Of a DNA stretch of 59,492 bases, positions 4,769-59,492 are shown in pieces. The stretch spans positions 1-59,492 of IMG/VR virus record IMGVR_UViG_3300044940_000188; one strand, 5' to 3'. The stretch is from a virus. A program made the position numbers and the translations under genes. Numbering within the stretch: the stretch's first letter is position 1; every line of letters begins with the position of its first letter. The notes below the pieces were generated by a model. That model did no database searches. It was not told where the DNA came from and was given only the letters and a program-made list of their open reading frames with translations.

Positions 4769-6384
4769 GTCTTGCCATCAATGATGTTGATGAGCGTTCG
4801 CTTGCCATTGGCGTAGATGACGGCGTGCGTGTTAAGCCAGCTGCTTGGTCCCTGCGTGTAGGACAGCTTCAGATATGTGCTCGTGCCTACTCTGTAGTGC
4901 CCGCCCTCGATGGCAGGGCTGTGACTGTGACCGGAAATTACGCGGACGCCAATTTTGGACAGGTTGTTCACCGAGCCCCTTGCGCCATCCGGGCCGCGAT
5001 GCCCGTGGAAGCCGCATTCTATACCTCCAATGAGGCAAGACTCGTCTGGCTTCAGGCAATGGATATCGTCACCCTCTCTCAGCTGCGACTCCAGCCACAA
5101 GGCGAACGGGTCTGGGTAGCTGGCTCCGCCCTCGGCTACTTTTGCCCGCTCGGCAAGGGCGGTGGCTGTCTTCAGGTAGAAGATGGCGTTGGTGGGGTCT
5201 TTCCGCCAGTCCGAGTCCACCAGCCACCGACGGAAGAAGTCGTCATGGTTGGAAGCGACGACGTAAGCCCTGCGCCCCGCCGACTTTTCGCGGATGAAAC
5301 GCACTGCCTCCGCCACCTCTCGGGCAAAATCAGCGCTTCCATTTTTGTGCCTGGCGACTGCTGCAAACGGATCATGGCGTTCGTGTGGGTTGACCGCAAA
5401 GCCGTCCAGCACATCGTGCCAGACGAGAGCTTGAGGGTTCAACCTGTCGACGATCCCGCCGGGACCGAACGTAGCCTTGACTACCTTTGGATCAATGAAT
5501 CTGACATGTGTGTCACCCATCACCAGTCCTAAGGCCGGAGGAGCAGGGCGGGCCGTGCCGTCTGGCAAATACTCAGTATCCAGGTCGATGAACGAGCCAT
5601 CGTCCATGGCGTTGATTTGCCGAAGGTGAAATCGTGGACCATCTAACTCGACGACGCAGGCCCCGAACACATGGTGAAACTCACCCTTCTTGCCCGCCTT
5701 GCTGTCAGTGTAGTTCTGGACAGTCACCGCACCAGTCGTGGTCATGATCTTAGGCAGGGCACCGTGAGGCGTTGCAATTGTCCGCAAAGCTATCTTTGAA
5801 TGGCCGAGGATGCCTGATTCGCCGTGGGTAATGCCTTCGAACCCGGATAGCGGATGCTGAGCAGTGGGGACGGTCTTGATGTCCCCAAGCAGGATAAGGT
5901 GCTTGCTCAGGCGTTTTCGCTGATTGTGCAGGTACGGCGTGATGGCTGGATCCCACACTTCAGCGTTTTGCTGCGATTCGCTCCACCGGGAAGTAGGGTT
6001 TTTATAACGAGTCGGTATGACTACGAGGTCGGCACCCCAAACCGAACAGTAACCCTTCAGTGCTTCTAGGAACCCCGCATGGACTGGAGTGGCGTTCTGA
6101 GCCGACGTCACTACGAGCCGGCGGCTGGTCAGGTTTCGTTTGAACTGTGGCCGACCGACGCGCTTGTTTGTCCCATTCTGCTTCGCCACGTACCCATCTT
6201 TTGGTGTAGTCGTGCTGTAGCAGTATAAGTCTTCGCCGCCACTTTTTGTCCTACACCCCCACCTCACTCGACCAGAAGGAGTACGGGCTAGGCGGATCAT
6301 TTTGCGCCCACAACGTGGGCACGAGGGGCGGTCGCTATCTGAGGAAGACTGCTTCGCGCGCGAAGACTGCTGCTTGTCGGTCAT
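4759..6384 (-). CDS. Calcineurin-like metallophosphoesterase with an N-terminal zinc ribbon
   Basis: CPRCGRKM...WGCRT at the N-terminus. Phosphoesterase motifs GDTHV, SNHDD, GFHGHRG and SGHSHSP. GGAG lies 9 nt upstream of ATG 6384. Confidence 0.75.
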   Translation of the reverse strand: MTDKQQSSRAKQSSSDSDRPSCPRCGRKMIRLARTPSGRVRWGCRTKSGGEDLYCYSTTTPKDGYVAKQNGTNKRVGRPQFKRNLTSRRLVVTSAQNATPVHAGFLEALKGYCSVWGADLVVIPTRYKNPTSRWSESQQNAEVWDPAITPYLHNQRKRLSKHLILLGDIKTVPTAQHPLSGFEGITHGESGILGHSKIALRTIATPHGALPKIMTTTGAVTVQNYTDSKAGKKGEFHHVFGACVVELDGPRFHLRQINAMDDGSFIDLDTEYLPDGTARPAPPALGLVMGDTHVRFIDPKVVKATFGPGGIVDRLNPQALVWHDVLDGFAVNPHERHDPFAAVARHKNGSADFAREVAEAVRFIREKSAGRRAYVVASNHDDFFRRWLVDSDWRKDPTNAIFYLKTATALAERAKVAEGGASYPDPFALWLESQLREGDDIHCLKPDESCLIGGIECGFHGHRGPDGARGSVNNLSKIGVRVISGHSHSPAIEGGHYRVGTSTYLKLSYTQGPSSWLNTHAVIYANGKRTLINIIDGKTWT

Positions 6385-15300: not shown

Positions 15301-16576
15301 CCGCGGCGGACTGCCCGGGGGTAAACAGGTCGCCTTGCGTCTGGTTTTGCCCAATGCGGACGCCGCTCGGGGTAGGACCAAACACGGACTCGAACGACTC
15401 GCCGGGAGTACCGCGGTTGACTGCGGCCTGGTCCTCAGTGGAAGCCCCCGACGGCGGAGCCTCGGACGGCACTTTCGGGCGCTGCCGGCGACCAAGCGCC
15501 ACTGAGAAGCCACCACCGATAAGGCCGCCCAGCACGCCGCCCTCAACAGTGGCCTCAAGAACACCCTCGCTCGCTCCGCGGGTCTTGTCATACGTCTGAG
15601 CAGCGATGTTCTGAACGTATTGCTCAACGGCCGACTGCGAAACTTCCTGCGGCGCCTCTGCAATGGCGCCCCGGCCTAGCCGCTGAAGTACAGTACCAGT
15701 CGCACCTTCTCCCACGATAGGTGTCCAGAGACGCCCAGCTGCGGAGGAGATAGCTCCTACAATCAGGCCGGCAAGCAGCGGGCGAACACCCTGAGCCTCG
15801 GCCGCAAGAGCCTCACGCGCCTCAGACTCAGTCATTGTCTTGCGCAACTCGGCGTAGCGAGGAGACTGCATGAGCTCCTCTTCGCGGGCAGACGCTACCT
15901 CCTCATTAATCTGATTGGCGAGGGCGCCCATCGAAATGGTCGCTTCGGACGCTCCAAGGTAGCTAATAGCCGCGGGCGAGGCACCCAAACGGAACATGAT
16001 GATGGACGGCAGCAGAGTGGCTAGCGACGATGGGACGGCTTGCACCAACTTCGTACCAACAGAAGCAGCTGTCTCCAACGGATCGTCGAACTGGAAAATC
16101 GACTTGGTCGGATCAAGCGTAGTCCACTCACGTGAAACGCGTTCGACAACCTCCGGGCGGAGAGTCTTGTACATCTCCTCACGGATGTTACCGAGGTACT
16201 GACGGACAGCACGAAACGGGGTGTCGAGGCCCATCTCCGGAACAATGCCCGGTAAAGCCTCACGAGCTTTGCGCTCCCCCTGTCCTACCAGATACTCGCC
16301 AGCACCGGCCAACGCCTCGCCGACACCAACAAGTTCTGCCCCGAACAGAGTGGAAAGGCCACTCTCGCCCTTGGGCGGGCGCGGCTTGATGCCGCCACCA
16401 AGCTCCCAGAGAGGCGGCAGGGCACGGTCGACCGGAGAAGCGCCGGCACTGTACTGCTCGACAAGGGCATCCGCCTCACCTTGAATGTCGGGCAGAGGCG
16501 GGAGGTCGAGCGGGTCAAGAGCTCGAAGTGGACCGAAATTCTTCTCGTACTGCCGGCGAATGCTTGACATGGTCAC
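6335..16576 (-). CDS. Giant (3413 aa) polyvalent-type virion protein with a zincin HExxH domain and a PLxRFG-like motif
   Basis: Uninterrupted 10.2-kb ORF. ILHELTHAATH is at 9848-9862, with downstream DEFLAEAW. YFPLMRYGDF is at 8666-8683. The N-terminus has Gly-rich hydrophobic segments, Pro-rich linkers follow, and the C-terminus has hydrophobic segments. Confidence 0.85.
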   Translation of the reverse strand: MTMSSIRRQYEKNFGPLRALDPLDLPPLPDIQGEADALVEQYSAGASPVDRALPPLWELGGGIKPRPPKGESGLSTLFGAELVGVGEALAGAGEYLVGQGERKAREALPGIVPEMGLDTPFRAVRQYLGNIREEMYKTLRPEVVERVSREWTTLDPTKSIFQFDDPLETAASVGTKLVQAVPSSLATLLPSIIMFRLGASPAAISYLGASEATISMGALANQINEEVASAREEELMQSPRYAELRKTMTESEAREALAAEAQGVRPLLAGLIVGAISSAAGRLWTPIVGEGATGTVLQRLGRGAIAEAPQEVSQSAVEQYVQNIAAQTYDKTRGASEGVLEATVEGGVLGGLIGGGFSVALGRRQRPKVPSEAPPSGASTEDQAAVNRGTPGESFESVFGPTPSGVRIGQNQTQGDLFTPGQSAADAVDPAVAAALRAREQFTTRVAQPYDRSGKPTGRPVVLQDSGELQAEREQAAMRATARAQAEAELAKSKPKPISPKAPKDAKARAAAAQARWQQAVEARTQQLLEQVPQIRPPATPNEAQVDMFEYVPIPGSEGIERSIQDGGLDPGQMGLRQYQLDLPPPPPRPITEQRELTQPIPGGTMSLLPPARGQLPQPPPERDLSQPPGVLPDERQIEIFDQAPFPRPEPAPVVQSVEEVTQPDETAQAPVEYEVSVVDRDRQVKSRKTFPTLAEAEAAAEPLRRRAEKTGNTVMVQRRQRSTADVYRLIGRDEDGNVVVNEPHPDSDSAQAALARYIMDSEFNTVEFSIVPTAELRKQAEPVPEVKQPDEPTAEPLLDIEAQLDDMEDETSDRLGVYLSRDNIARLNRDRVSEVIRGRGVQLGNFDDKGGLLIVRDRPTADMALELKAQGQDMQEILGLLTRAGAGKPLAGRYVVQERTPTGAVVRETLVGTYAEADALAEQIGERAVIISAQQALRRRARLIEQERKQRAKKRAETKARDEFLEQTDKLVEEGVITPEEEQEVLKSKTPGRAASRLLSRSAKAQRAAASRRIGGFFAPEDLTFRDARYADLYAKAFEELRGFVNFASTVTPRKGAKPRLLNIYEFDDIEEFATVGDRIRYAIELERLDDVLDTLSKTRKLGGASQKVDSRPIEVASKLSPEAAAEAKTRQLDIPVGEDISRSVFDTVDLVPEDELVRLVTLATRPGVVMRNALPSEKELAQDEAIFRLDELFAQAVNYIAGLPRRARAPEDAAARVANAGNKVLRNNDKIEEVKKKLAAFKGRKKKSNEAAELEAQLESLRNTQQKLVKDYLKAVAAVEETQDEPIERLNELGVMRLESLDEVKRANKLTEQEIEEGATAAGEMLLSHELTSALADEGIQFDVSVSQIITGDKDVVKQLYDRATTPGLKRKIIQRAQVMYQTNQNVGRARQARFRRDEQTGGTNRYGFSGQMPTGAKTVERKAAKQRMVEGYYAPEDVEFGAPRNRRLYVEAFKKLSDAAENVRLAGNEVTPLQRVSLEAAIAEMDKAVEKAQPTPKAADIYEVTSAYSADVLLNFWRVQDETPEERKKRVARADRLRPKLATAIAKTDEMLTRYRNEVLPAETDQAKRTQLVYALAYLRSLRDYAQFAYNANNPSTPALNQIEDLIEFLNEVNGMSDEAFAADYAKVMKSSLRGSLRLITGDQAFRKFVLDRSRANRDAALHAKHVAAVRLGRELTDVGMKKSMYFRDMIMPVMQKFADSFMVDGWFSYQPTVAEMDSVQYALQRMLRDKRTPPELTQRTAKYFLQLGYTFDENGVLQYEESSEPPPEGQKPRRRFERYTKITDENLDKQARLKYETLLGVVDRVTGEEYTPEVSASPLIREGTSASIFKRIQETREIAARSAERKEQSEIARDRVLNSRVLGVLTRYSNNLAAARTTGAARLAGQKLFAALEELGVEARPGVGKEKDTTVLVRAFGYDVKVPLVEPRLTGDTSTALEDIRRLGREMEIPEITTPLPQWARPDIATTFMRTPVAAEQAIPANVQQQAELYSRVAGVIDRFLKRVSNTKTTINGMVRAEQRLVRALQALGVWHQGNTPAIGTIKIGDKSRSVRLVADALQSKKLLKQQAKEIMLSLKPPAEPSIVVAARRTASPEAREQLAAVESKARSTPVDEETDLFMRAIDPDLYSEEFAAVVDEIDAAINQLGSGMAANDALDVFMRKIPKGHPFHAIAQRLLMSNLDDVVIRYDFGRRLKKGAAAAFVRNLNGRPTVLLRFYGDTGLSARGDALKSYTILHELTHAATHGALRNKPWFALELTALREHVRQYLENKMGGLPPTEYVRYGLERTKIDGRPNPIDEFLAEAWTNLELRAVLKRVPAPPPVTPPTLGSRIQSAWDAFKALVRRVLGLPEPVKPIQTSVLDVIFSMTDELFTGEKVDMTDALEVRLPDAVLRAPAAAILEKHTSISKWTKRIRDMAVPPLGAMTMEQIRDLYADGFQGPQGNPLTAYMDAYFKRAAENSRLMERAEKIMQRWTTLQQKDPAAAIELSRVATEASLYRVSPGEAVTSPRNSHLTTPTAKQRWSELNARYLAMPSEYRQMYDDLQAYYRNALAEESTLILQNALRAVLATGAGAPLDLETFEDTFTLKKLSGITPEKLNEMIGDIATPDMKATIAQLARLPEMRQGDYFPLMRYGDFVVYASREVERKTFTDSKEAFAYAATKRGDDPTLDVGVFKVDNKFEVRVTEKEFSTAESRTEAEEIRQRMVETYGADAVSDVQRRSQFTQDAAIQSNSALASILGNLEGNKAAQAAIKNFYLRSLADSSFRKHEIRRKNRLGVDYDIQHRNFANYAKQSAYYTSQLQYGWQLGRHLRDMDEFAKRTRGTDEISAVRRGDVVNELRQRDEQMAELPDIVNIVKRGTEFAQFISLTTPAYWMTNATQPWLITLPWLAARYGWRSASAALGMAQNLIKSPLLKAVVDSKGGIAAARKLTGKVAAEQAFSVIDQIIDQIRNDSSLPDGRGEKYIAMLTELRRNNVIDLSWIAELRDIAEGQDLSPTQRILDASRIMAHLTEVNNRVLVAIAAYDLKYNEVVEAVGEVEADRQATMYAKTAVSTTQFNYGGANKPRWFQTNGPLGAGAPLVTQFMQWPQHMYAMMGMNLYKWTKGDKEAKRVFLNMLATHTLAAGVTGTMFQPIKWAAGLVLALFGDDDEPYDAASAVSGQAFDWWFQKNLAAITGSPALAEAAAKGIPAALGVDMSKRLSMGSIFMADLRPENADSFLGSAVTSFGGPWIGIGVQWGRGFQQVMEASANGDVRGFFRGLEFVVPKIVRDFLRAGRFATEGITSTRGDVLVPADDVSPFDLFVQSIGLTPTSVSRFYDKREYLISRSRLAAEHKQDIVTRILKADPSERGRLIGEAVRHNKMYPDAPISITGLLQSLRNKREREVRTQTYGANLNDRQAAVFAREAVFLR

Positions 16577-43205: not shown

Positions 43206-43400
43206 TCAAGATCGGGATTTGGCACGGGCGGCTTCCTTCTTGGCAGCGGAAAGAACACGCTCGATGTACTGGCGCACGGCCGCGCGGACATGTTCGCTGA
43301 CAGTCAGGCCAGTCTTGTCTGACAGCCGATGAAGCTCGGCAATGTCATCGTCGGGGACAATCACATGGATGCGGGTTCCGTTCAGGGACGGGCGTGGCAT
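43206..43400 (-). CDS. Ribbon-helix-helix (Arc/CopG-like) DNA-binding protein, first gene of the minus block
   Basis: TRIHVIVPDDDIAELHRLSDKTGLTVSEHVRAAVRQYIERV shows a beta-alpha-alpha pattern. AAGGAGG lies 7 nt upstream of the ATG. Confidence 0.7.
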   Translation of the reverse strand: MPRPSLNGTRIHVIVPDDDIAELHRLSDKTGLTVSEHVRAAVRQYIERVLSAAKKEAARAKSRS

Positions 43401-43517: not shown

Positions 43518-43562
43518 CCCCACCCCCCACCCCCCTTGGCCCGGTACCCCCTACCCCCGCCC
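43518..43562 (-). other. Run of seven G-tracts on the minus strand (C-tracts on plus) in the divergent control region; G-quadruplex or i-motif potential
   Basis: Plus strand reads CCCC A CCCCCC A CCCCCC TTGG CCC GGTA CCCCC TA CCCCC G CCC. Confidence 0.5.
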
Positions 43563-43654
43563 ACTGACGCCCGACAGCCCGAGGCGTTCCTAAGTCACGG
43601 TATATGAAGGGCGCGCATGGTGCATGCCCGCAATCGCTGCACACGCGCAGCGAC

Positions 43655-43669
43655 TTACAAACCTTGTAA
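43655..43669. promoter_or_regulatory. Palindrome S1: TTACAAACCTTGTAA
   Basis: Exact inverted repeat. Ends 2 nt before the GGAG SD of gene 43683. Confidence 0.9.
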
Positions 43670-43682
43670 CTGGAGTACTGAC

Positions 43683-44225
43683 ATGACTAAGCAGACCAAC
43701 ACGATCACGAATCCTGCCGAACTGTCGCGTATCGCGAAAACGTTCGCGCGAGCCTACACGCTCAACGTGTCGGCGGCCGACATCCTGACGGAGTCGGCAA
43801 GCATGTTCGCGGCGCGTCTGAAGCGCGAGGAACGTGCCAGCACGAAGGAAGAAATCAACTTCATGGTCGCCGAAATCGTCGCACTCTGCGGCTTGCAGAA
43901 GCTACCGTCGCGGGCGGTGCGCGAGTCGGAAATCCGCAGCGTGTTCCGGAACGCGGCGGCTTTCACGGCCGTGATGCAGAAGATCGGCAACACGCGCATC
44001 GGCTACGCGCCGGCGATCCAGCTGGCGCGGAAGTGCGATAGCCTGCCGGTCGCCGACGTCGTGGCATGGTACAAGTCCGGTAAGCCGATCGCAGGAACCG
44101 CGACGCCGAAGGCGAAGCGCGCACGCGCCGTGAAGACGTTGACGCACCTGTGCGACGAAAAGTCGTTGCCGCGCGACTTCCGCGACGCGCTGGCGCGGCT
44201 CATGGCGAAGTACTCGCTGGCCTGA
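43683..44225 (+). CDS. First early gene, 180-aa hypothetical protein
   Basis: ATG 43683 has GGAG 7 nt upstream; the track start 43617 is rejected. Bracketed by palindromes S1 and S2. Confidence 0.65.
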   Translation: MTKQTNTITNPAELSRIAKTFARAYTLNVSAADILTESASMFAARLKREERASTKEEINFMVAEIVALCGLQKLPSRAVRESEIRSVFRNAAAFTAVMQKIGNTRIGYAPAIQLARKCDSLPVADVVAWYKSGKPIAGTATPKAKRARAVKTLTHLCDEKSLPRDFRDALARLMAKYSLA

Positions 44226-44226
44226 G

Positions 44227-44241
44227 TTACAAGGCTTGTAA
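44227..44241. promoter_or_regulatory. Palindrome S2: TTACAAGGCTTGTAA (17 bp including the G...C flanks)
   Basis: Exact inverted repeat starting 1 nt after the stop codon. Confidence 0.9.
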
Positions 44242-44256
44242 CTCACGTCCCTTCAC

Positions 44257-44285
44257 CCCCACGGCTTCACGGCCGTGGGGTTTTT
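44257..44285 (+). terminator. Intrinsic terminator
   Basis: Stem CCCCACGGC / GCCGTGGGG followed by TTTTT. Confidence 0.8.
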
Positions 44286-44310
44286 CGCTTCATGCTCTGG
44301 GAAAATCACG

Positions 44311-44547
44311 ATGACCCCGCACATTGACGGTCATGACTTGACGCCCACGGAACTGATGAACCTTGCGCTTTCATGGCTGGAAGTTTTCAACGAAACCTGC
44401 GACGAGCATGCGTGGCGCGTGGCCGCCAGCATCTACAACGATCTCGCCGAACGGCGACAGGAAGCCATTCGGCTGAACCTCGAAAGCTCCACCTACATCG
44501 GGATGGTAGCTGATGACTTGAGCCGCGAACTGATGTCGTGGACCTGA
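44311..44547 (+). CDS. Hypothetical 78-aa protein
   Basis: ATG 44311 lies downstream of the terminator. The SD is weak. Confidence 0.55.
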   Translation: MTPHIDGHDLTPTELMNLALSWLEVFNETCDEHAWRVAASIYNDLAERRQEAIRLNLESSTYIGMVADDLSRELMSWT

Positions 44548-44564
44548 GCCTACCTGACACACGT

Positions 44565-44579
44565 TTACAAGCCTTGTAA
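44565..44579. promoter_or_regulatory. Palindrome S3: TTACAAGCCTTGTAA, with flanks extending to an imperfect 29-bp palindrome
   Basis: Sequence cacacgtTTACAAGCCTTGTAAacatgtg. Confidence 0.9.
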
Positions 44580-44593
44580 ACATGTGCCTGCAA

Positions 44594-44623
44594 CCCCACG
44601 GCCTGACAGCCGTGGGGTTTTTT
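44594..44623 (+). terminator. Intrinsic terminator with the same stem as 44257-44285
   Basis: Stem CCCCACGGC / GCCGTGGGG followed by TTTTTT. Confidence 0.8.
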
Positions 44624-44780
44624 GTGTGCACATTTCGTAGGGACTCCGTTTATGCGCCCATTTTTCGCCGTATGCCGGGCTGGCGGGCTGGCGGGCCGGA
44701 GGGGGCGGAGGCAGTGAGGAGAGGCGCCGCCTCTGGCGGCGTTATCATCGGCGCAAATCATGAGCCGTGGGGCTGAAGTA

Positions 44781-45171
44781 TTTGTAGTGGTTTGCAGTCA
44801 GAGGCAGCGAGGGCGGATCACTACAAACAAACCCAGGCGGAGAGCGGTCTATAAATATATATAGTTATTATAGTATTTATAGTGATGTCTCCGCCGAGAA
44901 CCTACGTAAGGCTTTTCGGTTTCGTGGGTTTGAATTGATGGGGTGTGTGTAGAAGATTAGGGTCTTCTATTTCTAAAGCGCGCTATAAATACTATTATTC
45001 GTTTTTTCTTTAGAAACAATGACTTCTAACCCAGCTGCTGAACTGCGCTTCGAGGGTTTATAGCAGCGCGCTGCTTTTAACCCCCACAGCCCCACAAACT
45101 CTCCCTCTGCCACTTAACAACCCGATTATTTATAGTCATCGAAACAGCCCTACTATAATTACTATAAATAC
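44781..45171. repeat. AT-rich non-coding island with 5 exact CTATAAATA copies in both orientations, nested in short inverted repeats
   Basis: CTATAAATA at 44849-57 (+), 44874-82 (-), 44983-91 (+), 45127-35 (-) and 45162-70 (+). Inverted-repeat pairs: 44781-89/44819-27, 44836-43/44888-95, 44950-56/44963-69 and 44971-78/45008-15. A 14-bp palindrome lies at 45062-75. Confidence 0.85.
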
Positions 45172-45207
45172 CCAGCCTTTCTCAACAGGTGATTTCAGCA
45201 TCACTTG

Positions 45208-45222
45208 TTACAAAATTTGTAA
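45208..45222. promoter_or_regulatory. Palindrome S4: TTACAAAATTTGTAA
   Basis: Exact inverted repeat in the leader of the early operon. Confidence 0.9.
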
Positions 45223-45259
45223 ATTTCCGAGTCTCTAAACAAGTCTCGGAAATCTTTTT
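45223..45259 (+). terminator. Terminator or attenuator-like hairpin in the 5' leader of gene 45303
   Basis: Stem ATTTCCGAG / CTCGGAAAT, 13-nt loop, then CTTTTT. Confidence 0.55.
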
Positions 45260-45302
45260 CACAGTGCCTACTCCCTAAACAAACCATGAAGGAGAAATCA
45301 TC

Positions 45303-45521
45303 ATGAACCGTACCAACCTGATCGAAGTCATCGCTGGTGCCGCCGAAACGATTGCTGACACGGTGGGCCAGCACCTGTCCACCCTGCCACCCGACCACCT
45401 GTTCGCACTGGAGTCGGCGTACTACGACCTGACGGGAAACCCGCTCTTCAGTGAGGCGCAACGCCAGCAGCTGCTTGCCCGTGCCAACCGCCCCCCCGCC
45501 GCTGGCGTGGGTCGCTTCTGA
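45303..45521 (+). CDS. Hypothetical 72-aa early protein
   Basis: AAGGAG lies 8 nt upstream of the ATG. Confidence 0.6.
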   Translation: MNRTNLIEVIAGAAETIADTVGQHLSTLPPDHLFALESAYYDLTGNPLFSEAQRQQLLARANRPPAAGVGRF

Positions 45522-45536
45522 TCGTGGGGTATCAAC

Positions 45537-46121
45537 ATGTTCATCATCTATTTCCAGTTGGTCCCCCACCCCGCTGGTGAGCCGGGTGAAGTGCCGGAGC
45601 TGTTCACTGATCATCTGCTCTACCCGCTGGTCCGTCCGGTTGAGTTCGGCAAGGTCCGTGCCAACAGCCCCACAGCCCCCCGCCCGTGTCGTGCCAGTGA
45701 GCCGTCCTACTTGCAGAACGACGAGCTGAACCAGCTGAGGACAAAGATGATGGTTGACTACTCACTGCGGTCCGGGCGCTTCTACCCTAGCGACTTGACT
45801 GAACAGTACCCTGCCGGCGTGCGGGCGATACTGAGTACAGCGCCGTTCTATCTGCAGCACTCCGACATCTACGAGATCGGCCTGCTGCTTGGCTGGTTAC
45901 GGCCCACCAGTCTTGGGTACTACTGGGGCATTGGTCTTGGTAGCACGCTGGTTGACGTGTTCAGTCGGACTGATCCGCACATCGAATTCCAGTTCGAAAA
46001 CGAGGAAGACGTTCTGCGTTGTGCAGAGCTGTCAGTGAAAGGAGGTGAGCGCTACTACTTCGCCCTGCCTGAAAAACCGTCACATACCACGCTCCGTTAC
46101 GTGGCACTGTTCACGTACTGA
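45537..46121 (+). CDS. Hypothetical 194-aa early protein
   Basis: ORF with typical composition; weak SD. Confidence 0.6.
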   Translation: MFIIYFQLVPHPAGEPGEVPELFTDHLLYPLVRPVEFGKVRANSPTAPRPCRASEPSYLQNDELNQLRTKMMVDYSLRSGRFYPSDLTEQYPAGVRAILSTAPFYLQHSDIYEIGLLLGWLRPTSLGYYWGIGLGSTLVDVFSRTDPHIEFQFENEEDVLRCAELSVKGGERYYFALPEKPSHTTLRYVALFTY

Positions 46122-46150
46122 AACACACCTACACATGAGGAGACACAACC

Positions 46151-46552
46151 ATGAAAATCAACGACGCAGCAATCGGCTCTCGCTCCAGCTTCAGTCTCGT
46201 CTACGAGGACTTCGTGAACTCTGTTCTGTTCATGATCATCATCGCCGCCTGCTTGATCGCTGGGGTAGTCAACACTGACGCCGGCTGGACGGTGGCAGGG
46301 CTGGCGCTCTGGGTTGTCAGGCTGGACGATCAGATCACCCGTGCCAGACGGCGGCTGCTGGTGTACGGCGAGACGGTGTTCCTGTCTGAAGCACTGATGT
46401 ATGCGCTGAAGCTGGACCCCGACAATGGCAAGCAGTTCCTGCAGAAGCTGGTGGAGGAAGGGTACGTCCGTGAGGAGATACTGGCGGAGGTGCTTGAACG
46501 CACCGTCGAAGCCTTTGGCCTGAACAAGAAAAAGACCAACAACGAGGAGTAA
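46151..46552 (+). CDS. Early membrane protein (133 aa)
   Basis: GAGGAG SD. Hydrophobic segments VLFMIIIAACLIAGVV and WTVAGLALWVV. Confidence 0.65.
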   Translation: MKINDAAIGSRSSFSLVYEDFVNSVLFMIIIAACLIAGVVNTDAGWTVAGLALWVVRLDDQITRARRRLLVYGETVFLSEALMYALKLDPDNGKQFLQKLVEEGYVREEILAEVLERTVEAFGLNKKKTNNEE

Positions 46553-46557
46553 CAGCA

Positions 46558-46767
46558 ATGAAAAGCTGCAACACCTGCCGACACTACTACCGTCCGCTGT
46601 TTGCCCGTCTACTGAACACTGGACGGGTGGAGTGTCACCATCCGAAAGTCAACGAGCTTGCCAGCAACCATCTGTTTGCCGTGCACGGGCAGTTCGGCAT
46701 CGACTGCCTGGGAGCGCGGCGTCTTTATTGCCGTGACGGCAGCATGCATGAGGAGAAAAAACCATGA
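46558..46767 (+). CDS. Cys/His-rich 69-aa protein, possibly a zinc finger
   Basis: CNTC...CHH...C...C pattern. GAGGAG SD. Confidence 0.6.
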   Translation: MKSCNTCRHYYRPLFARLLNTGRVECHHPKVNELASNHLFAVHGQFGIDCLGARRLYCRDGSMHEEKKP

Positions 46768-46907
46768 AAAGGAAGGACAAGTGGATGCGCAGACGGGAGC
46801 GCCGGCGTGCCGAGAAGTGGCTGCGCCTGCAGCGGCAGGCTGCTGAGCGGCAGCGGCTGAGGGAGCAGTCCGGGTTGATCGTTGCCGCTGAGGAGACGTC
46901 GCGATGA
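46764..46907 (+). CDS. Arg-rich 47-aa ORF (below the track cutoff)
   Basis: ATGA overlaps at both ends and AGGAG lies 8 nt upstream. Translation: MKRKDKWMRRRERRRAEKWLRLQRQAAERQRLREQSGLIVAAEETSR. Confidence 0.45.
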   Translation: MKRKDKWMRRRERRRAEKWLRLQRQAAERQRLREQSGLIVAAEETSR

Positions 46908-47212
46908 GCAGTAGCTATCAACCTCTATCCGGACTCGTGACGGAGCCGGACGGTACGCAGGCCATGTATTTGTTGGGCACTGCCGTCCTGACGGTGTATC
47001 CGTCCGGGACTGTCCGCATCGACACTGATGACTGGCGTGGGCATGTAGTTAGTACCCGCATCAACTACGCCGCTGCCAAATTACGGTTGAACCTGCGGAT
47101 CTTCTTTTCCAAGAACGGTGATCTGCTGCTTGTCTACAAAAACAGAGAGATGAACCTCCGCAAGGCCAGCGTCGTGGTACTCCACGATGGTGCCGTGCTG
47201 GAGGTAGCGTGA
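46904..47212 (+). CDS. Hypothetical 102-aa protein
   Basis: GAGGAG SD and coupled start. Confidence 0.6.
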   Translation: MSSSYQPLSGLVTEPDGTQAMYLLGTAVLTVYPSGTVRIDTDDWRGHVVSTRINYAAAKLRLNLRIFFSKNGDLLLVYKNREMNLRKASVVVLHDGAVLEVA

Positions 47213-47222
47213 CGTGCCTACC

Positions 47223-47237
47223 TTACAAACCTTGTAA
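47223..47237. promoter_or_regulatory. Palindrome S5: TTACAAACCTTGTAA (17-mer identical to S1)
   Basis: Exact inverted repeat, 7 nt upstream of the AAGGAG SD of the ATPase gene. Confidence 0.9.
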
Positions 47238-47256
47238 CCAAACTAAGGAGACAGAC

Positions 47257-48321
47257 ATGAACATCAAGAATGCGAAAACCATGATTAAGGCCCTCTACAA
47301 ACGTCAGGTGGAGACCGGTGTGCGGTACTCGGTGATGCTCCAGTCTGGCCCTGGGCTGGGCAAGTCGGAGGGTGTGGCGCAGGCGGTGGCAGAGCTGTCG
47401 CAGGAGATGAAACAGCCATTCGGGCTGAAGACCTTCCTGCTGTCCACGGTTGAGTCGCCGGACCTGCGTGGGTTCGGCATTCCGGCCAAAGACACCGACG
47501 GCACGCCCATAATGACGTATACCCGTGCGCCGTGGGGGCTGCGTGCTGGTGACCCGCAGCACGGGATACTGTTCCTCGACGAGTTCAGGCAGGCGAGCCA
47601 CGACGTTCAGAAACCGGCTGCCGAGCTACTGCTCAACGGGCGTGTGGGCGAGACCGTGCTGCCCATCACCTACATGGTAGTCGCGGCGAGCAACCGGGAC
47701 ACCGACCGCTCAGGCGTGCAACGGGAGATGGCGTTCATTACCAATCGTCTGCTGACGGTTGACGTGCACGCTGACCTCGACGCGTGGGTGGAGTGGGCCG
47801 AGAAGTCGCGGGTGCACTGGATGGCAGTGGCGTTCGCCAAGGCCAACCCGAGCGACGTGTTTGCTGACCGGGTGCCCGACAAGCCGGGTCCGTTCTGCAC
47901 GCCGCGCACGCTGGTCAAGGTGGCCAACCTGATCGACGCTGGGCTGCCTCAGAACATGTTCGGTGAGGTTGCTGCTGGTCTCATCGGTGAGGGCACGGCG
48001 ACAAAACTGGTGGCGTTCATGCGGGTCATCGACGAGCTGCCCACGTTCGAGGAGATCGTCAAGGACCCAGAGAACTGCCGCCTGCCGCCAGTTTCTCGGC
48101 CCGACGCGCAGTACGCTGCCATGCAAATGGTGGCGCACCGGGTGACCCCGGCCACCTCTCGGGCAGTGTTCACCTACCTGCTCCGCCTGCCGCGTGAGTT
48201 CCAGTTGGCCGGCCTGCGGGCAGCCCTGCGTGTGGCACCACAGGTGTTGCACAACAAGGAGTTCGCCGACTGGATGCGGTCGAACAGCCAGCTGCTCGCT
48301 GCTGTCGCCGCTGCTTCGTAA
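47257..48321 (+). CDS. MoxR/CobS-like AAA+ ATPase
   Basis: Walker A SGPGLGKSEG, Walker B ILFLDEF and sensor-1 VVAASNRD. ATG 47257 has AAGGAG upstream; GTG 47209 would read through palindrome S5. Confidence 0.85.
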   Translation: MNIKNAKTMIKALYKRQVETGVRYSVMLQSGPGLGKSEGVAQAVAELSQEMKQPFGLKTFLLSTVESPDLRGFGIPAKDTDGTPIMTYTRAPWGLRAGDPQHGILFLDEFRQASHDVQKPAAELLLNGRVGETVLPITYMVVAASNRDTDRSGVQREMAFITNRLLTVDVHADLDAWVEWAEKSRVHWMAVAFAKANPSDVFADRVPDKPGPFCTPRTLVKVANLIDAGLPQNMFGEVAAGLIGEGTATKLVAFMRVIDELPTFEEIVKDPENCRLPPVSRPDAQYAAMQMVAHRVTPATSRAVFTYLLRLPREFQLAGLRAALRVAPQVLHNKEFADWMRSNSQLLAAVAAAS

Positions 48322-48350
48322 TCTACTAACATCTGTAAGGAGACATGACC

Positions 48351-49691
<1,341 letters not shown>

Positions 49692-49755
49692 TGACACGTG
49701 TAGACCTCACCAACGGTACCAATTACCTGACTATCGAAGTAACGAAGGAGTAGAC

Positions 49756-50976
49756 ATGAGTAGCCAGAGGTTTACAGAAATGAAGTCGGCCGTGCTGATG
49801 CACGTGCCGTTCTTCGCTGCGCTCTTGCTTGACCGGATGACGATGAAGGTTGGCAAGTTCCCCAACATCCCGACGGCCGGCACCGATGGCAAGACGGTCT
49901 GGTTCGACGAGGATTTTCTCAACAGCCTGACACTCAAGGAGGCGATGTTCGTGTGCTGCCATGAGGTAGCGCACGCCATGTGGATGCACATGGACCGGGC
50001 CAAGAAATACGAGAGGCTCGGCACTGTGAACGGCAGGCCTTTCAATGCCATGAAGTGGAACACTGCCGCTGACTACGTCATCAACTATCTGCTGGTGGAG
50101 GCTGGCATTGGCAAAATGCCTGCAGGCGGACTGTACGACGGCCGGTACACGTCGAGCATGTCGGTAGAGGAGGTGTACGCACAGCTGCCGGACCCGCCAC
50201 CGTCTGGAGGTGGTGGCGGTAGTACTGGTGACGGCGGTGACAATGGCGACGGTGACGGCAGTGACGGCGGTGGCGGCCGTGACGCCATGCCGGGGTTCGA
50301 CGTGCACGTACCTGCTCAGTCCGAGGTTTCCCAAGAAGAGTGGAAGCGCGCTGTCGCTAGCGCCGTGCAGGCTGCCAAGACCGCCGGCAAGCTGCCCGGC
50401 GCACTGGAGCGGTTCGCTGAGGCATTACTTAACCCGCAGGTCACGTGGCAGGAGGTGCTGCGCCGACGACTGACGGCGCTGGTGGGGCGCGACGCGCGCA
50501 CGTGGGCAAAGCTGCATCGGCGCCGGCTGGTGGCACAGGGGGTAGTTATGCCAGGTTACGCCGGTCATAGGGCCGGCACGGTGGTGGTTGTTGTGGACAC
50601 GTCCGGGTCTATCAGCAGTCAGGAGCTTACGGTGTTCCTGACAGAGGTACAGGCAATTCTCGACGACGTGCAGCCGCAGGAGACCGTCCTCGTTGCGTGC
50701 GACACCAAAGTGCAAGATGTGCACACGCTGTATCCAGGCGATAGCCTCACAGCCCTGCAGCTCAAGCTGGGTGGAGGCGGCGGCACGTCCTTCGTCCCGC
50801 CATTCGAGTGGGTGGCGGAGCAGAGTGTGTACCCCGACACGCTGGTGTACCTAACCGACATGCACGGTACGTTCCCTGCTGACCCGGGCTACCCGGTCAT
50901 CTGGTGTGCGACGAGTGACCGGGAAGGACCGTTCGGCGAGACGATTCGTCTTGAGGTTGGAGGTGGGCTGCTGTGA
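49756..50976 (+). CDS. VWA-domain protein with an N-terminal DUF2201-type metallopeptidase-like domain (CobT-like partner)
   Basis: HEVAHAMWMH, a Gly/Asp linker, and the MIDAS motif VVVVDTSGSIS. ATG 49756 has GAAGGAG upstream. Confidence 0.8.
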   Translation: MSSQRFTEMKSAVLMHVPFFAALLLDRMTMKVGKFPNIPTAGTDGKTVWFDEDFLNSLTLKEAMFVCCHEVAHAMWMHMDRAKKYERLGTVNGRPFNAMKWNTAADYVINYLLVEAGIGKMPAGGLYDGRYTSSMSVEEVYAQLPDPPPSGGGGGSTGDGGDNGDGDGSDGGGGRDAMPGFDVHVPAQSEVSQEEWKRAVASAVQAAKTAGKLPGALERFAEALLNPQVTWQEVLRRRLTALVGRDARTWAKLHRRRLVAQGVVMPGYAGHRAGTVVVVVDTSGSISSQELTVFLTEVQAILDDVQPQETVLVACDTKVQDVHTLYPGDSLTALQLKLGGGGGTSFVPPFEWVAEQSVYPDTLVYLTDMHGTFPADPGYPVIWCATSDREGPFGETIRLEVGGGLL

Positions 50977-51602
50977 GAAAGCGCACTAGGTCTAGCCCGT
51001 TCGAAGGCTATCAGGTGTGTTGGAACTGGATGCAGACCAGCCGCATGTCCGTACCGATACCACTTACAAACGCCCAAATTCAGAGCATGTTAGAACGACT
51101 GGCGGCAGTGTCTGTCTCCGGCACGTCAATAGAAGTGCACAACCGAAACATGGCTGTGCATTACTCGAACACGTCCGTGATCAAGCTGGAAGGTATGTCC
51201 ACCACTGCCGCATTGCATGCCGGTGGATTGAAGATCCCGTCGCCACGCGAGTTCTTCATTGTGCCGAAGAGTGCGTCAGAGTATGCCGTCCTGCAGGACT
51301 GGGTAACCAAAGCGTGCGAGTATGAAGACAGACTTCAGCACAACCTTGCCATCTTGCACACACAGCTGTCGAGTGAAGAAGGTGTTCATCCAATGCTGGC
51401 TGATTTACTGGAACCGTTTTGGAAGCTGCGTGTAAACAAGCACGATTCGACGCCCGGCATCCACGATCTTCTAAAAATGCTGACAGACGGACTGGCGCTT
51501 CAGACTGTCATCGGTATGGACGTGGTTGTGAGACCTGTGACTCCGGTAGATGGTGGTTGGAGTGCAGGCGATTCAACGGTTGTTATTTCGTGGGTGGAGT
51601 AG
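50973..51602 (+). CDS. Hypothetical 209-aa protein; lower GC than surrounding genes
   Basis: GTG overlaps the VWA stop (GTGA). The exact start is uncertain. Confidence 0.55.
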   Translation: MRKRTRSSPFEGYQVCWNWMQTSRMSVPIPLTNAQIQSMLERLAAVSVSGTSIEVHNRNMAVHYSNTSVIKLEGMSTTAALHAGGLKIPSPREFFIVPKSASEYAVLQDWVTKACEYEDRLQHNLAILHTQLSSEEGVHPMLADLLEPFWKLRVNKHDSTPGIHDLLKMLTDGLALQTVIGMDVVVRPVTPVDGGWSAGDSTVVISWVE

Positions 51603-51606
51603 AACA

Positions 51607-52455
51607 ATGACCAGACTGTCAACAAAACCAATGGCCTATAAGGTCAATCATTGCCTGCGAAAAGAAGCTGAGCGCTACATAGTAGCTACACGCCCGCTCG
51701 TACCATTCCCGCTTGACCCGGTGAAGCACCTTCTGATCCCTGCAATCGGCAAAGAACGGCTGGCATTTTTACTTGATATGTGCACGTCGTATGAAGATCG
51801 CAAGAACAGAAAGCAGCCGTGGTTCGCCGTTAACGGTCACGGGTTTGCGGCATGCTATCCGGACATAACTATTACCTTCGACCGGGACTCTTTGCGGCAT
51901 GTGGCTAGTACATACCCGCTACCGCTGGACCGCCAGTTCTTGAACGTCCGCTCAATGGTGCTGGACATGATTGACTCAGGCTGGAGTATTGCCATTGATG
52001 TCCGGCTACCAACCATGTTCGAAGGCCGTCTGTGTGATGTAGGTATCCACTCTTCCAACCTTCCACCTGAAATTGCAGAGGCGGTGGCGTTGTTTGTGGT
52101 GAGTCGGTCTATCGTCACGTGCAACATCTATACAGCTTTTCAGCTGGTAGAGATGATGTACTCCGATCGCAAGAACATACGTGTTCTGGCTAACATCTTT
52201 CCATCTTTGAGGAAGACGTTAAGCGAGTTGGTGGGATATGCTATCCCGGAGGAGAAAGTCAATTTGATGCGTTGTATTAAGAACAGTCGGCTGCGGAATT
52301 TAATTCCCGGTATCAACGCTGTTCTGGCCGTCAAACACCTGATCCCCAAAGTTGAAACAGACGACGCCACACAGATACCGTACCCAGACATCTACTACTC
52401 GATGTCGCCCAGTGCCAGATTACTTGATCTATGGCTGGCACGCCAGCCGGGTTAG
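51607..52455 (+). CDS. Hypothetical 282-aa protein; lower GC
   Basis: ATG 51607 has GGTGGAG upstream; the track start 51550 is rejected. Confidence 0.6.
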   Translation: MTRLSTKPMAYKVNHCLRKEAERYIVATRPLVPFPLDPVKHLLIPAIGKERLAFLLDMCTSYEDRKNRKQPWFAVNGHGFAACYPDITITFDRDSLRHVASTYPLPLDRQFLNVRSMVLDMIDSGWSIAIDVRLPTMFEGRLCDVGIHSSNLPPEIAEAVALFVVSRSIVTCNIYTAFQLVEMMYSDRKNIRVLANIFPSLRKTLSELVGYAIPEEKVNLMRCIKNSRLRNLIPGINAVLAVKHLIPKVETDDATQIPYPDIYYSMSPSARLLDLWLARQPG

Positions 52456-52461
52456 CCAAAC

Positions 52462-52476
52462 TTACAAGCCTTGTAA
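52462..52476. promoter_or_regulatory. Palindrome S7: TTACAAGCCTTGTAA
   Basis: Exact inverted repeat, 6 nt after the stop codon. Confidence 0.9.
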
Positions 52477-52481
52477 CTTTC

Positions 52482-52516
52482 AGGCCCACGGTCCCCGCGG
52501 ACCGTGGGCCTTTTTT
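52482..52516 (+). terminator. Strong intrinsic terminator
   Basis: 13-bp stem AGGCCCACGGTCC / GGACCGTGGGCCT, 4-nt loop, then TTTTTT. Confidence 0.85.
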
Positions 52517-52533
52517 GTGCCTTTTTCTTGCGC

Positions 52534-52562
52534 TTGACACGCCCCGTCGGCCCCGCTACATT
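52534..52562 (+). promoter_or_regulatory. Sigma70-like promoter candidate upstream of the DNA polymerase gene
   Basis: TTGACA, a 17-nt spacer, then TACATT. Located immediately after the terminator. Confidence 0.5.
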
Positions 52563-58251: not shown

Positions 58252-59492
58252 GTGAGCAAGACTGTAGCCCGCAAGAATCTGGTCCCTACGGCTGAAGTGC
58301 CGGCCTACCTGCGCAACGTGATTGCGCGGACCAAGACCGAAGACTTCTCGGAGTTCACCGACGGTGTGACGTCTGGCTTTGGGATCATCAGCTACCGTGG
58401 AAAGGTGTGGCGTGTCCGCAAGGGCGGCGAGGAGCAGCAGTACCTTGACGAGAACGGCGACGCGATGCCGTCGATTGAAGTTGTGTTCATCAAGGCTAAC
58501 CGCCTGCCGTCTAAGCTGTACTACGGAGCGAAGTACGTCGAGGGCGACAACAGCCCGCCGAAGTGCTACTCCACCGACGGCGTGCGGCCAGACGTCGCTG
58601 TACTGGAACCGGTGTCCGAGTTGTGCGCCACCTGCCCGAACAACGTCTGGGGCAGCCGCATTACCGATGACGGCAAGAAGTCACGTGCTTGTCAGGACAG
58701 CCGTAGGACGGTTGTCGTCTTTTCTCACCATCTGGTTGACGCGACGCCCTACAGCCCGCCGGAAGTGTTCATGCTTCGGGTGCCGCCCGCGAGCTTGAAC
58801 CCGTTGAAAGAGTTTGTCGAGAAAATTCTCAAGCCGAAAGGTATTCCTCTGTACTCGGTCGTGGTCCGTGTCGGGTTCGACAAAGACGCGTCCTTCCCGA
58901 AGTTTACCTTCCGGGTGGTGCGGTTTGTTACCGAGGAAGAGTACGAGATCATCGAGCAGCTGCGCGCTTCTGATGAAGTGGCGCGGATCCTCACGCAGGA
59001 GGGGGCTGCCGTCGAGCAGGGCGCGGGGGGAATTACTGCAGGCAGCGAGGTAGCGTCTGGTGCACCGGCCGGGCGCCGGGCTGAAGCGACCCCTGCAGCT
59101 CCCCCCGCCTCTTCCAAGAAAGCCAAGCTGGTTCCGGTCGAGGAGGAAGTCGAGGAGGATGTCGAGGAGGATGTCGAAGAAGAGGAAAACGAGGACGACG
59201 CTTTCCCTCCACCGCCGGTGCGCGCTGCCGCCCGTGAAGCGGACGTAGAGAACGACGAAGAGGAGGCTCCACCGCCTCCTCCCAAGAAGAGGGCCAAGCC
59301 GACTCCGCCACCGGTTGTCGAGGAAGACGAAGACGACGAGGAGGAGGCTCCACCGCCTCCTCCCAAGAAGAGGGCCAAGCCGACTCCGCCACCGGTTGTC
59401 GAGGAAGACGAAGACGACGAGGAGGAGGCTCCACCGCCTCCTCCCAAGAAGAGGGCCAAGCCGACTCCGCCACCGGTTGTCGAGGAAGACGA
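58252..59492 (+). CDS. SSB-like protein with a Cys4 motif and a long acidic/Pro/Lys repeat tail. Runs off the window and finishes at 224 (445 aa in the closed circle)
   Basis: GTG 58252 has GGAG 7 nt upstream. The frame is open to the window end. Contains CYSTDG...CATCPNN...ACQD. Not in the ORF track because it has no in-window stop. Confidence 0.7.
   Translation, partial: MSKTVARKNLVPTAEVPAYLRNVIARTKTEDFSEFTDGVTSGFGIISYRGKVWRVRKGGEEQQYLDENGDAMPSIEVVFIKANRLPSKLYYGAKYVEGDNSPPKCYSTDGVRPDVAVLEPVSELCATCPNNVWGSRITDDGKKSRACQDSRRTVVVFSHHLVDATPYSPPEVFMLRVPPASLNPLKEFVEKILKPKGIPLYSVVVRVGFDKDASFPKFTFRVVRFVTEEEYEIIEQLRASDEVARILTQEGAAVEQGAGGITAGSEVASGAPAGRRAEATPAAPPASSKKAKLVPVEEEVEEDVEEDVEEEENEDDAFPPPPVRAAAREADVENDEEEAPPPPPKKRAKPTPPPVVEEDEDDEEEAPPPPPKKRAKPTPPPVVEEDEDDEEEAPPPPPKKRAKPTPPPVVEED
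59284..59492 (+). repeat. Perfect 81-bp coding tandem repeat: 2 full units (59284-59364, 59365-59445) and a 47-nt partial unit that continues at the window start
   Basis: Period 81 verified by position (59284, 59365, 59446). Confidence 0.9.

Follow-up and report, generated by a model that had tools for sequence, protein, structure and literature searches.

We describe a set of short palindromes in the genome of an uncultured phage, IMG/VR record IMGVR_UViG_3300044940_000188 (59,492 nucleotides, analyzed over its entire length and hereafter referred to as the window), that form a genuine, phage-specific signal under selection and keep to the early transcription unit. The palindrome, TTACAA-N3-TTGTAA (pattern TTACAANNNTTGTAA), is present in seven exact copies that start at positions 43655, 44227, 44565, 45208, 47223, 48709 and 52462 (sites S1 to S7) and contain, as first listed, the central triplets ACC, GGC, GCC, AAT, ACC, GCC and GCC, respectively. 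Dispersed phage-specific palindromes are already known from the Cluster O mycobacteriophages, where their function has never been worked out. What this case adds is a comparative series of about 20 related phages that keep the architecture and the positions of the sites while the sequence itself is rewritten, sometimes between genomes with 90-96% identical core proteins, which amounts to a natural specificity-swap experiment. The series yields a single strong candidate for the reader of the palindrome, the product of the first early gene. This lineage combines the genome plan of phage N4 and the ejection domain of the giant N4 protein with no detectable virion RNA polymerase; the early programme therefore must run on the host polymerase, in which no lineage-specific signal other than the palindromes is obvious. 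The question is experimentally tractable in a cultured relative with a related motif, Rhizobium phage RHph_TM3_14A.

The seven copies were noticed in an original prediction that relied on scanning the sequence by eye, and its account of their number and confinement is borne out: no TTACAANNNTTGTAA site exists outside 43655-52476 in the 59.5-kb window, and not a single match was obtained in 100 dinucleotide-preserving shuffles. Sites with one or two mismatches to TTACAA-N3-TTGTAA are missing from the entire 59.5 kb as well (0.66 expected); given that the search with up to two mismatches adds no site in the window, the motif is all-or-none. The shuffles and the mismatch scan rule out an origin of the motif by chance or from composition. 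The sites span 8.8 kb of the window and are uniform in build, with all 12 arm bases invariant and an N3 spacer in all seven, that is, a fixed spacing within this phage. The extension to 17 bp that had been proposed for most copies, with G or C in front and C behind, holds only in part, the 5' flanks of S1 to S7 being C, G, T, G, C, G and C, and the 3' flanks C, C, A, A, C, C and C.

Sites and adjoining signals in the early block

Six of the seven copies are intergenic, in agreement with the original prediction, and S1 and S5 are indeed the same 17-mer (C TTACAAACCTTGTAA C) adjoining a Shine-Dalgarno sequence and ending 13 and 19 nt, respectively, before an ATG. S1 (TTACAAACCTTGTAA, 43655-43669) follows at about 48 nt the conserved block TTCCT-N9-TATATG-AAGGG, which resembles an early promoter (43587-43612, plus strand; read directly from the sequence), and stands in front of the first early gene (43683-44225, plus strand), which encodes a 180-aa protein of a family that we denote F1. 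This gene is flanked on the other side by S2 (TTACAAGGCTTGTAA, 44227-44241), which begins 1 nt past the stop codon; 15-16 nt separate its end from the stem of a hairpin that resembles an intrinsic terminator and has a T run (44257-44285, plus strand). S3 (TTACAAGCCTTGTAA, 44565-44579), with flanks that lengthen the dyad (cacgt...acatg), follows the stop codon of the gene 44311-44547 and precedes by 12-15 nt the stem of another terminator-like hairpin with a T run (44592-44625, plus strand). S4 (TTACAAAATTTGTAA, 45208-45222) is found in a 5' leader, about 65 nt after a promoter-like site, CTGCCA-18-TATAGT (45107-45136, plus strand), that belongs to an AT-rich non-coding stretch; it abuts a weaker terminator- or attenuator-like hairpin (45223-45260, plus strand; dG -12.6, CTTTTTC) which precedes the gene 45303-45521.

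S5 (TTACAAACCTTGTAA, 47223-47237) lies before the ATG of a MoxR-like ATPase, the homolog of N4 gp24, a position that is syntenic in most relatives. S6 (TTACAAGCCTTGTAA, 48709-48723) is the exception to the intergenic placement: it is embedded in a low-complexity, proline-rich and acidic linker of the product of the gene 48345-49691, where its codons read V-T-S-L-V-T, and the orthologs in relatives carry, in the linker or at their start, the palindrome of the respective phage. S7 (TTACAAGCCTTGTAA, 52462-52476), at the position that is most conserved in the clade, follows the stop codon of the last early gene and precedes by 5-7 nt the strong terminator at the end of the early block (52482-52517, plus strand; dG about -27); a sigma-70-like promoter, TTGACA-17-TACATT (52534-52562, plus strand), then opens the DNA polymerase/replication block. 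Thus, S2, S3, S4 and S7 are each 1-16 nt upstream of the stem of an intrinsic-terminator-like hairpin with a T run, and these hairpins are all four of the intergenic ones in the early block, a pattern absent from the first reading of the sequence. A fifth such hairpin was called within the DUF2201 gene, at 49869; no site lies near it.

Two features next to the sites merit separate mention. The 650-bp AT-rich non-coding stretch at 44640-45290 (in a genome with 58% GC), which ends with S4 and its hairpin, holds repeated TATAAATA/TATAGT-like blocks (e.g. tatttatagtgatg and ttatttatagtcat) similar to the conserved early -10-like block; strong early promoters may be clustered here, or the stretch may be a region of non-coding RNA. 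Where the two genome arms diverge, there is a conserved C-rich element, CCTTGGCCCGGTACCCC (43534-43550, plus strand), also written CCTTGGCCCGGTACC(CC), with C-run flanks and G runs on the opposite strand. This element is exact in phages with proteins that are only about 55-60% identical (2862-2876 in the relative L003, 4932-4946 in L015 and 9900-9914 in L031), and in most relatives the first palindrome is 10-20 nt past it; its possible roles include a genome end and a signal for packaging or for protein binding.

Rewritten palindromes at conserved positions

The relatives of the window phage comprise 19 IMG/VR loci fetched via the ATPase, with further contigs added via the first early gene (hereafter L001 and so on); the distant relatives that were judged are those with enough sequence. 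A palindrome of the same build, but with a sequence of its own, is present in 15 metagenomic relatives, in 4-11 copies each; All distant relatives with an ATPase of 54-60% identity and enough sequence carry one, as does a single relative at only 28%. In the 97%-identical L001, six sites are exact, S5 has one substitution and the centre of S4 is changed from AAT to GGT. The other motifs (in IUPAC notation) are TTAACAG-S-CTGTTAA in L002; TTACACA-S-TGTGTAA in L003, L031 and L037; TTACAAC-S-GTTGTAA in L004 and L005; TTGCTAG-S-CTAGCAA in L007 and L008; ACACACA-S-TGTGTGT in L010 and L011; TCACACA-S-TGTGTGA in L012 and L015; TCACACG-NN-CGTGTGA in L013; TTACTCA-S-TGAGTAA in L016; TCACGAC-W-GTCGTGA in L018; and CTTACAA-CGCA-TTGTAAG in L035. 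Two further motifs have no spacer, TTACACC being joined directly to GGTGTAA in L006 and TTACACAG to CTGTGTAA in L009. No palindrome of this kind is found in Pseudomonas phage KPP25 or in L019.

All 109 sites in the 15 relatives fall within the early spans, and none is found in 113.6 kb of flanking late-arm and replication DNA of the loci; for late DNA, this absence is based on late-arm flanks totalling 44 kb, given that a search with the portal for late arms of the distant relatives gave only contigs that are about 96% identical. Several positions are syntenic. One is at the divergence of the arms, next to the C-rich element and the promoter-like block; another is within or adjacent to the first early gene; a third immediately precedes the ATPase Shine-Dalgarno sequence; a fourth is in the orthologs of 48345-49691, either at the gene start or within the linker; and the last is before the closing terminator. 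In 11 of 12 phages, a site lies 3-17 nt before the terminator that closes the early block, followed by the sigma-70-like promoter of the polymerase block, and a start codon follows the end of many sites at a distance of 11-21 nt, the site adjoining the Shine-Dalgarno sequence on its 5' side. By the terms of the original prediction, absence of the motif from syntenic places in related phages would have counted against it. The positions and the architecture are kept; the sequence itself is not, and it changes symmetrically and in concert across the copies of each genome. The palindrome accordingly qualifies as a phage-specific recognition element of the early block, with architecture, copy number, confinement and several syntenic positions all preserved in relatives, and given that the sequence is rewritten in concert while the positions stay, the signal appears to be read by a co-evolving phage factor.

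Relative to the conserved -10-like hexamer of the predicted early promoter, the first site is placed either upstream, by 18-26 nt, or downstream, by 29-49 nt; in the eight relatives with the upstream arrangement (L003, L011, L013, L015, L030, L031, L035 and L037), it overlaps the predicted -35 position and would probably not be transcribed. An alignment of 116 sites from -70 to +50 contains no flanking information content or positional signal, ruling out that the palindrome is part of a sigma-70 or another fixed promoter; because no conserved signal flanks it, the palindrome is a stand-alone site.

A looser form of the motif, (G)TTAC-N6-8-GTAA(C), is present in the cultured Rhizobium phage RHph_TM3_14A (L022-L024, MN988472.1), with 46 copies against 1.6 expected. 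Thirty-one of these are in the 27.7-kb rightward (early/replication) arm and 15 elsewhere, and approximately half are inside genes. In this phage, a 1027-aa "putative integrase" is found, by position alone, in the place of the primase-helicase of the window, and the record annotates attL and attR as 14-bp features within genes.

Two observations on the surroundings of the early block come from the contigs of the relatives. Five independent contigs that carry the first early gene (L033-L036 and L030) end 0.2-1.2 kb past it, which suggests that the region just downstream is hypervariable between strains and breaks assemblies. On the other side, the leftward genes by the divergence point include, in precomputed Pfam hits, Acb2/Tad1-like and Tad2-like anti-defence proteins; these leftward genes (2984-3277 in L033, 1592-1951 in L034, 3846-4076 in L035 and 4186-4416 in L036) contain no palindromes.

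Mode of recognition and candidate readers

Our preferred, albeit tentative, explanation is that the sites make up an operator set on duplex DNA for a phage-encoded regulator that times or shuts down the early unit. The palindromes would then be dispersed sites of a single phage-encoded, sequence-specific factor governing the rightward early transcription unit of a virulent, N4-like-organized podophage that would rely on the host RNA polymerase. This factor would bind duplex DNA symmetrically, with one subunit per 6-7-bp arm and a flexible linkage between the subunits, and the sites would act as operators or roadblocks, one at the early promoter (at about -43 or about +45), others in the small gaps before early cistrons and one at the boundary between the early and replication genes, together allowing the phage to time or shut down its early genes. 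The protein that best matches such a factor would be the first early gene product (F1, 43683-44225). All three elements of this scheme, namely DNA rather than RNA as the target, repressive binding and F1 as the reader, are what we infer from the features that follow.

The choice of DNA is suggested by symmetry. The bases flanking the centre are complementary in 78 of the 87 15-mers from 12 phages, and in every one of the eight motif families; such full two-fold symmetry favors duplex DNA because the inner pairs cannot form around a 1-nt loop. The spacer-less perfect palindromes in several relatives (L006 and L009) also favor duplex DNA. The centre base is G or C in 82 of the 87, with a mild bias on the sense strand (C:G = 51:31). 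Conserved half-sites around a less constrained centre are as in operators of dimeric proteins. The arms are AT-rich in genomes of 55-60% GC, and in L012 two copies share the same uncompensated change in one arm. The stand-alone character of the site and its place upstream of the -10-like hexamer in eight relatives also speak for duplex DNA.

The same features bear on the alternative that early transcripts contain the palindrome as a stem-loop through which a phage factor, possibly F1, controls the adjacent signal, which we consider possible but rather unlikely. Depending on the adjacent signal, such a stem-loop could mediate local read-through of terminators in the manner of nut/N, removal of protective terminator hairpins or processing between cistrons, or control of translation at the Shine-Dalgarno sequence; these variants are doubtful to the same extent. 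The complementarity that reaches non-pairing positions and the spacer-less palindromes are not expected of a hairpin, and the variable loops on invariant stems are the reverse of boxB and most protein-hairpin operators. The window hairpin would be marginal as well, at -1.1 kcal/mol or -3.7 kcal/mol with a flanking G-C pair; the centre base has no consistent orientation; the first site lies upstream of the predicted early promoter in many relatives; the terminator after F1 in the relatives usually has its site after, not before it; and in the Rhizobium phage the sense and antisense folding energies are equal in sum. What recommends the stem-loop is in part the location of the sites: all are within one transcription direction, one precedes each of the four intergenic terminator-like hairpins of the early block and, in 11 of 12 phages, the closing terminator, and most of the intergenic ones are immediately 5' of a Shine-Dalgarno sequence. 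In particular, S4 is in a leader between a promoter-like site and a terminator-like hairpin, and the order promoter, S1, first gene, S2, terminator recalls pL-nutL-N-tL1 of phage lambda. The spacing between the arms, which ranges from 1 to 4 nt within and between close relatives, is what would be expected of loops, which may vary, and the inner 6-8 nt of the Rhizobium phage motif are not symmetric. A U·G wobble in one functional-looking site (L006, 11008) is a weak hint in the same direction, and the prevalence of sense-strand wobbles (8:4) and UUCG-type loops (7:1) in the Rhizobium phage is suggestive but weak. We also considered pairing in RNA between terminator-adjacent and Shine-Dalgarno-adjacent copies, as seed and target, because it would explain both the full symmetry and the tolerance of the spacer; the centres are complementary only 19:13, which is not significant, and this version is remote.

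Returning to operators on duplex DNA, several observations weigh against this explanation and have to be set beside the symmetry. The fixed N3 spacing of the window does not extend to the relatives, where spacers vary within a genome: the TTACACA/TGTGTAA arms of L030 are 1, 2, 2 and 3 nt apart, L015 mixes 14- and 15-mers, L031 has one 16-mer among 15-mers, and the Rhizobium phage mixes 15- and 16-mers with unsymmetric centres. Such variation argues against a DNA-bound dimer because a rigid dimer on B-DNA would not tolerate it. A roadblock directly before a terminator, the arrangement in 11 of 12 phages and at four hairpins of the window, has no obvious use, and the sites that end 11-21 nt before start codons suggest a role at the RNA level. 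Furthermore, no protein with a recognizable DNA-binding fold was found to covary with the motif; comparison of the F1 model with PDB and BFVD using Foldseek gave no significant match; and the covariation of F1 rests on two phage pairs, in a background of generally hypervariable early genes.

The two readers named in the original prediction fare differently. The ribbon-helix-helix (RHH) protein of the CopG type, encoded on the minus strand at 43206-43400, is probably outside the system. It was found in seven relatives, and the beta-strand with which it contacts DNA, N-G-x-R-x-H-V-I, hardly varies between phages whose palindromes differ; we reject it as the reader because this strand does not covary with the palindrome. 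The gene was not detected in L003, a locus with nearly 2.9 kb upstream of the first site.

The first early gene is, by contrast with the RHH gene, a plausible candidate, as far as can be judged from its basic product, its conservation as the first gene and its divergence in one phage pair. It is the sole gene of the leftmost early region that forms a clade-wide family, with 46 metagenomic homologs, and it is kept as the first early gene. Its product is the most basic early protein (30 K+R vs 16 D+E, net charge +14). In many members, the palindrome is encoded within F1 codons 35-40, where V-I-T-Q-C-V corresponds to TTACACAGTGTGTAA and I-H-T-V-C to TCACACAGTGTG. L011 and L015 have palindromes with different spacing and a different outermost base pair, and their F1 proteins are only 33% identical, compared to 95-96% for the ATPase, 91% for PolA and 89% for DUF2201; F1 is by far the most diverged ortholog in this one close pair with differing palindromes. 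Between L007 and L008, which share a palindrome, F1 is 60% identical. A Pfam search identified no domain in F1, and a profile search of PDB sequences returned only noise. The AlphaFold2 model, built from 42 sequences, is confident (pLDDT 85.7) and all-helical, and the predicted fold appears to be a new all-alpha one that matches nothing known. The F1 product is the best candidate for the factor that reads the palindrome, still an unproven one.

A bolder possibility, and an unlikely one in our estimate, is that the palindrome and F1 form a new, fast-evolving specificity pair that acts on elongating host RNA polymerase or on early transcripts rather than on promoters, for example, with F1 as a local antiterminator or RNA-processing factor loaded before each terminator and many cistrons, a version that we hold to be equally unlikely. 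If this were true, the pair would provide the early-to-middle switch of an N4-related lineage in which the virion RNA polymerase was lost. How the nucleic acid is recognized could itself be unusual in that 1-4 nt between the arms are tolerated in spite of full dyad symmetry.

A further class of explanations, which we consider improbable, invokes some other transaction of DNA: priming by the primase-helicase or single-strand initiation, hot spots of recombination and module exchange, pausing of entry or ejection, or selfish repeats. The motif of the Rhizobium phage is spread over the genome, about one per 1.3 kb, also inside genes; sites are tolerated in disordered linkers and coding sequence; some boundaries of homology blocks between relatives match sites; and, if N4 is a guide, DNA entry into the cell probably begins with the early block. 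However, the sites of the window clade are limited to the early transcription unit and bounded by its terminator, and their spacing along the genome is irregular (138 to 3753 bp). Selfish spread does not fit conserved positions combined with a changing sequence. Recombination hot spots are rejected given that homology breakpoints lie mostly away from the sites, with boundaries of blastn blocks between same-motif pairs only occasionally at them.

Known systems and the genome setting

The closest described system is the set of 17-bp repeats of the Cluster O mycobacteriophages, TGTTCGG-N3-CCGAACA, which are present in more than 30 copies, have no known function and are predicted to bind a dimeric DNA-binding protein (PMC4351075). 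The likeness includes invariant 7-bp inverted arms, a variable, unoriented centre and very few one-mismatch variants, as well as the location of many copies in intergenic regions or near the 5' ends of genes, with some inside genes, in a phage that is not obviously temperate (PMC4351075). The Cluster O repeats are, however, genome-wide and the same in all five members, whereas here the sites are restricted to one early unit and the arms differ from phage to phage. In addition, arm spacing here can differ between the sites of a genome, and there is tight coupling of one site to a terminator.

In phage lambda, the N protein acts at nut sites, two per phage, where boxB is recognized through its loop. 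The layout described here is similar in that a palindrome comes after the early promoter and others before early terminators (S1 between the promoter-like block and the gene; S2, S3, S4 and S7 before terminator-like hairpins), the first gene adjoins the first site and the specificity pairs differ. The differences from nut are the invariant stems with variable loops, the 4-11 sites per phage and a symmetry more extensive than a hairpin could exploit; neither boxA, which was not searched for systematically, nor an arginine-rich, N-like peptide was identified.

Dispersed operator sets are represented by the stoperators of Cluster A mycobacteriophages, such as the L5 gp71 sites, and by the conserved inverted repeats of phiC31, the C1 operators of P1 and the KorA/KorB sites of RK2. 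These systems likewise consist of many short sites in intergenic gaps through which one protein silences or times operons, with specificities that differ between relatives. The L5-type stoperators are asymmetric, oriented with transcription and found in temperate phages (compared in PMC4351075), whereas the sites described here are palindromic, with C and G both common at the centre. Neither an integrase nor a repressor family turned up among the scanned ORFs of the window, several late-arm and end ORFs being outside the scan.

The start-associated sequences (SAS/ESAS) of Cluster K are phage-specific repeats upstream of many gene starts, with function unknown (PMC4351075). They resemble the present sites in being phage-specific repeats immediately upstream of gene starts. 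In the paper on Cluster K, the SAS are reportedly asymmetric, include the ribosome-binding site and are 3-8 bp from the start codon. The sites described here, in contrast, are palindromic, end 11-21 nt upstream, exclude the Shine-Dalgarno sequence and are found also before terminators and inside genes. Restriction to one early unit, a sequence rewritten in each phage, flexible spacing and coupling to terminators thus set this system apart from the known dispersed palindromes.

The window phage has an N4-like genome plan. The late genes, including those for the portal, the large terminase, a tail fibre and a 3413-aa virion protein, are on the minus strand from about 3.5 to 42.6 kb, and the diverging plus-strand arm, with the early and replication genes, extends from 43.6 kb over the window junction to 3.1 kb. 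This arm starts with small early genes without assigned function and includes the MoxR-like ATPase and a DUF2201/VWA protein, the homologs of N4 gp24 and gp25, as well as replication genes for a family A DNA polymerase, an exonuclease, a helicase and a primase-helicase. No near-identical DNA is present among GenBank phages; among cultured phages, the closest are Pseudomonas phage KPP25 and the Rhizobium phages of the RHph_TM3_14A type, with 31-33% identical PolA, and the ATPase of the Rhizobium phages is 31-33% identical as well. The ATPase has no relatives in 185,579 representative bacterial genomes and, given also that no integrase was found among the scanned ORFs, the window phage looks virulent; by the same evidence, operators of lysogenic immunity were rejected. 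A search of the window for tRNAs and Rfam families yielded none.

With this genome plan, it is conceivable that the palindromes are early promoters of the N4 type, that is, hairpins extruded on the template strand and read by an injected virion RNA polymerase, an explanation that we largely reject and regard as highly improbable. The early promoters of N4 and LUZ7 have stems of 5-7 bp (4 bp or more in LUZ7) and 3-nt loops, and LUZ7 has nine of them (PMC4496689, PMC9163698). Thus, short inverted repeats with a centre of about 3 nt, the number of copies, their positions at gene starts and at the beginning of the early region, and the giant virion protein and N4-like replication genes of a podophage are shared or similar. 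In N4-type promoters, however, a GC-rich 3-nt loop region and the bases from -17 to +1 are by definition conserved (PMC4496689), the start is fixed and the polymerase domain is required, whereas here the loops vary (ACC, GGC, GCC, AAT), the stem is invariant and AT-rich, and the flanks are not conserved. Four of the window sites immediately precede terminators, a start 11-14 nt from the centre would often cut the Shine-Dalgarno sequence, and sigma-70-like promoters are present in the window.

The giant virion protein itself (3413 aa; 6335-16576, minus strand) matches the "virion RNA polymerase" PHROG with residues 167-530 (E 1.5e-11). This match covers only the N-terminal part of the profile (positions 219-592 of 3406), which corresponds to the ejection domain, and a T7-like single-subunit polymerase domain was not detected by sequence comparison. 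The central 1100 aa have no match in PHROGs, Pfam, PDB sequences or 5.8 billion proteins; the centre consists of charged helical repeats, and internal repeats of the form YAPED..F...R..LY..AF..L are apparent. Further toward the C-terminus, there is a HELTH motif of the HExxH metallopeptidase type, and the C-terminus matches a DarB-like PHROG and the LPD39 domain. To judge from these matches, the giant protein looks like an N4-like ejection protein without a polymerase.

Other observations concern the gene content of the plus-strand arm. An 81-bp tandem repeat of about 5-6 copies occupies 59261-59492 and continues into 1-224, with an AGGAGGC-N6-GCCTCCT core at 59261, 59342, 59423, 58 and 130; it reads as coding, for an acidic, proline-rich 27-aa repeat (EEEAPPPPPKKRAKPTPPPVVEEDEDD). 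Because this coding repeat spans the window junction, the window looks like an assembly that is circularly permuted, its ends lying within a repeat-containing gene that immediately precedes the gene for the primase-helicase. The 448-aa product of 48345-49691, the gene that contains S6, sits between the gp24-like ATPase and the gp25-like DUF2201 protein and is conserved (e.g. 11083-12387 in L005); it combines an N-terminal D-F-D-x-D-I-x-S-L-L motif, a long acidic disordered linker and a C-terminal domain with DIRNFATLVTLNTxRWHAKVKDR. Pfam and PHROGs searches with this protein, with tandem 220-290-aa paralogs and with the family upstream of the ATPase gave nothing informative. Finally, a 69-aa early protein encoded at 46558-46767, which is not conserved in the relatives examined, is rich in Cys and His (CNTC...ECHH...C...C) and may be zinc-binding.

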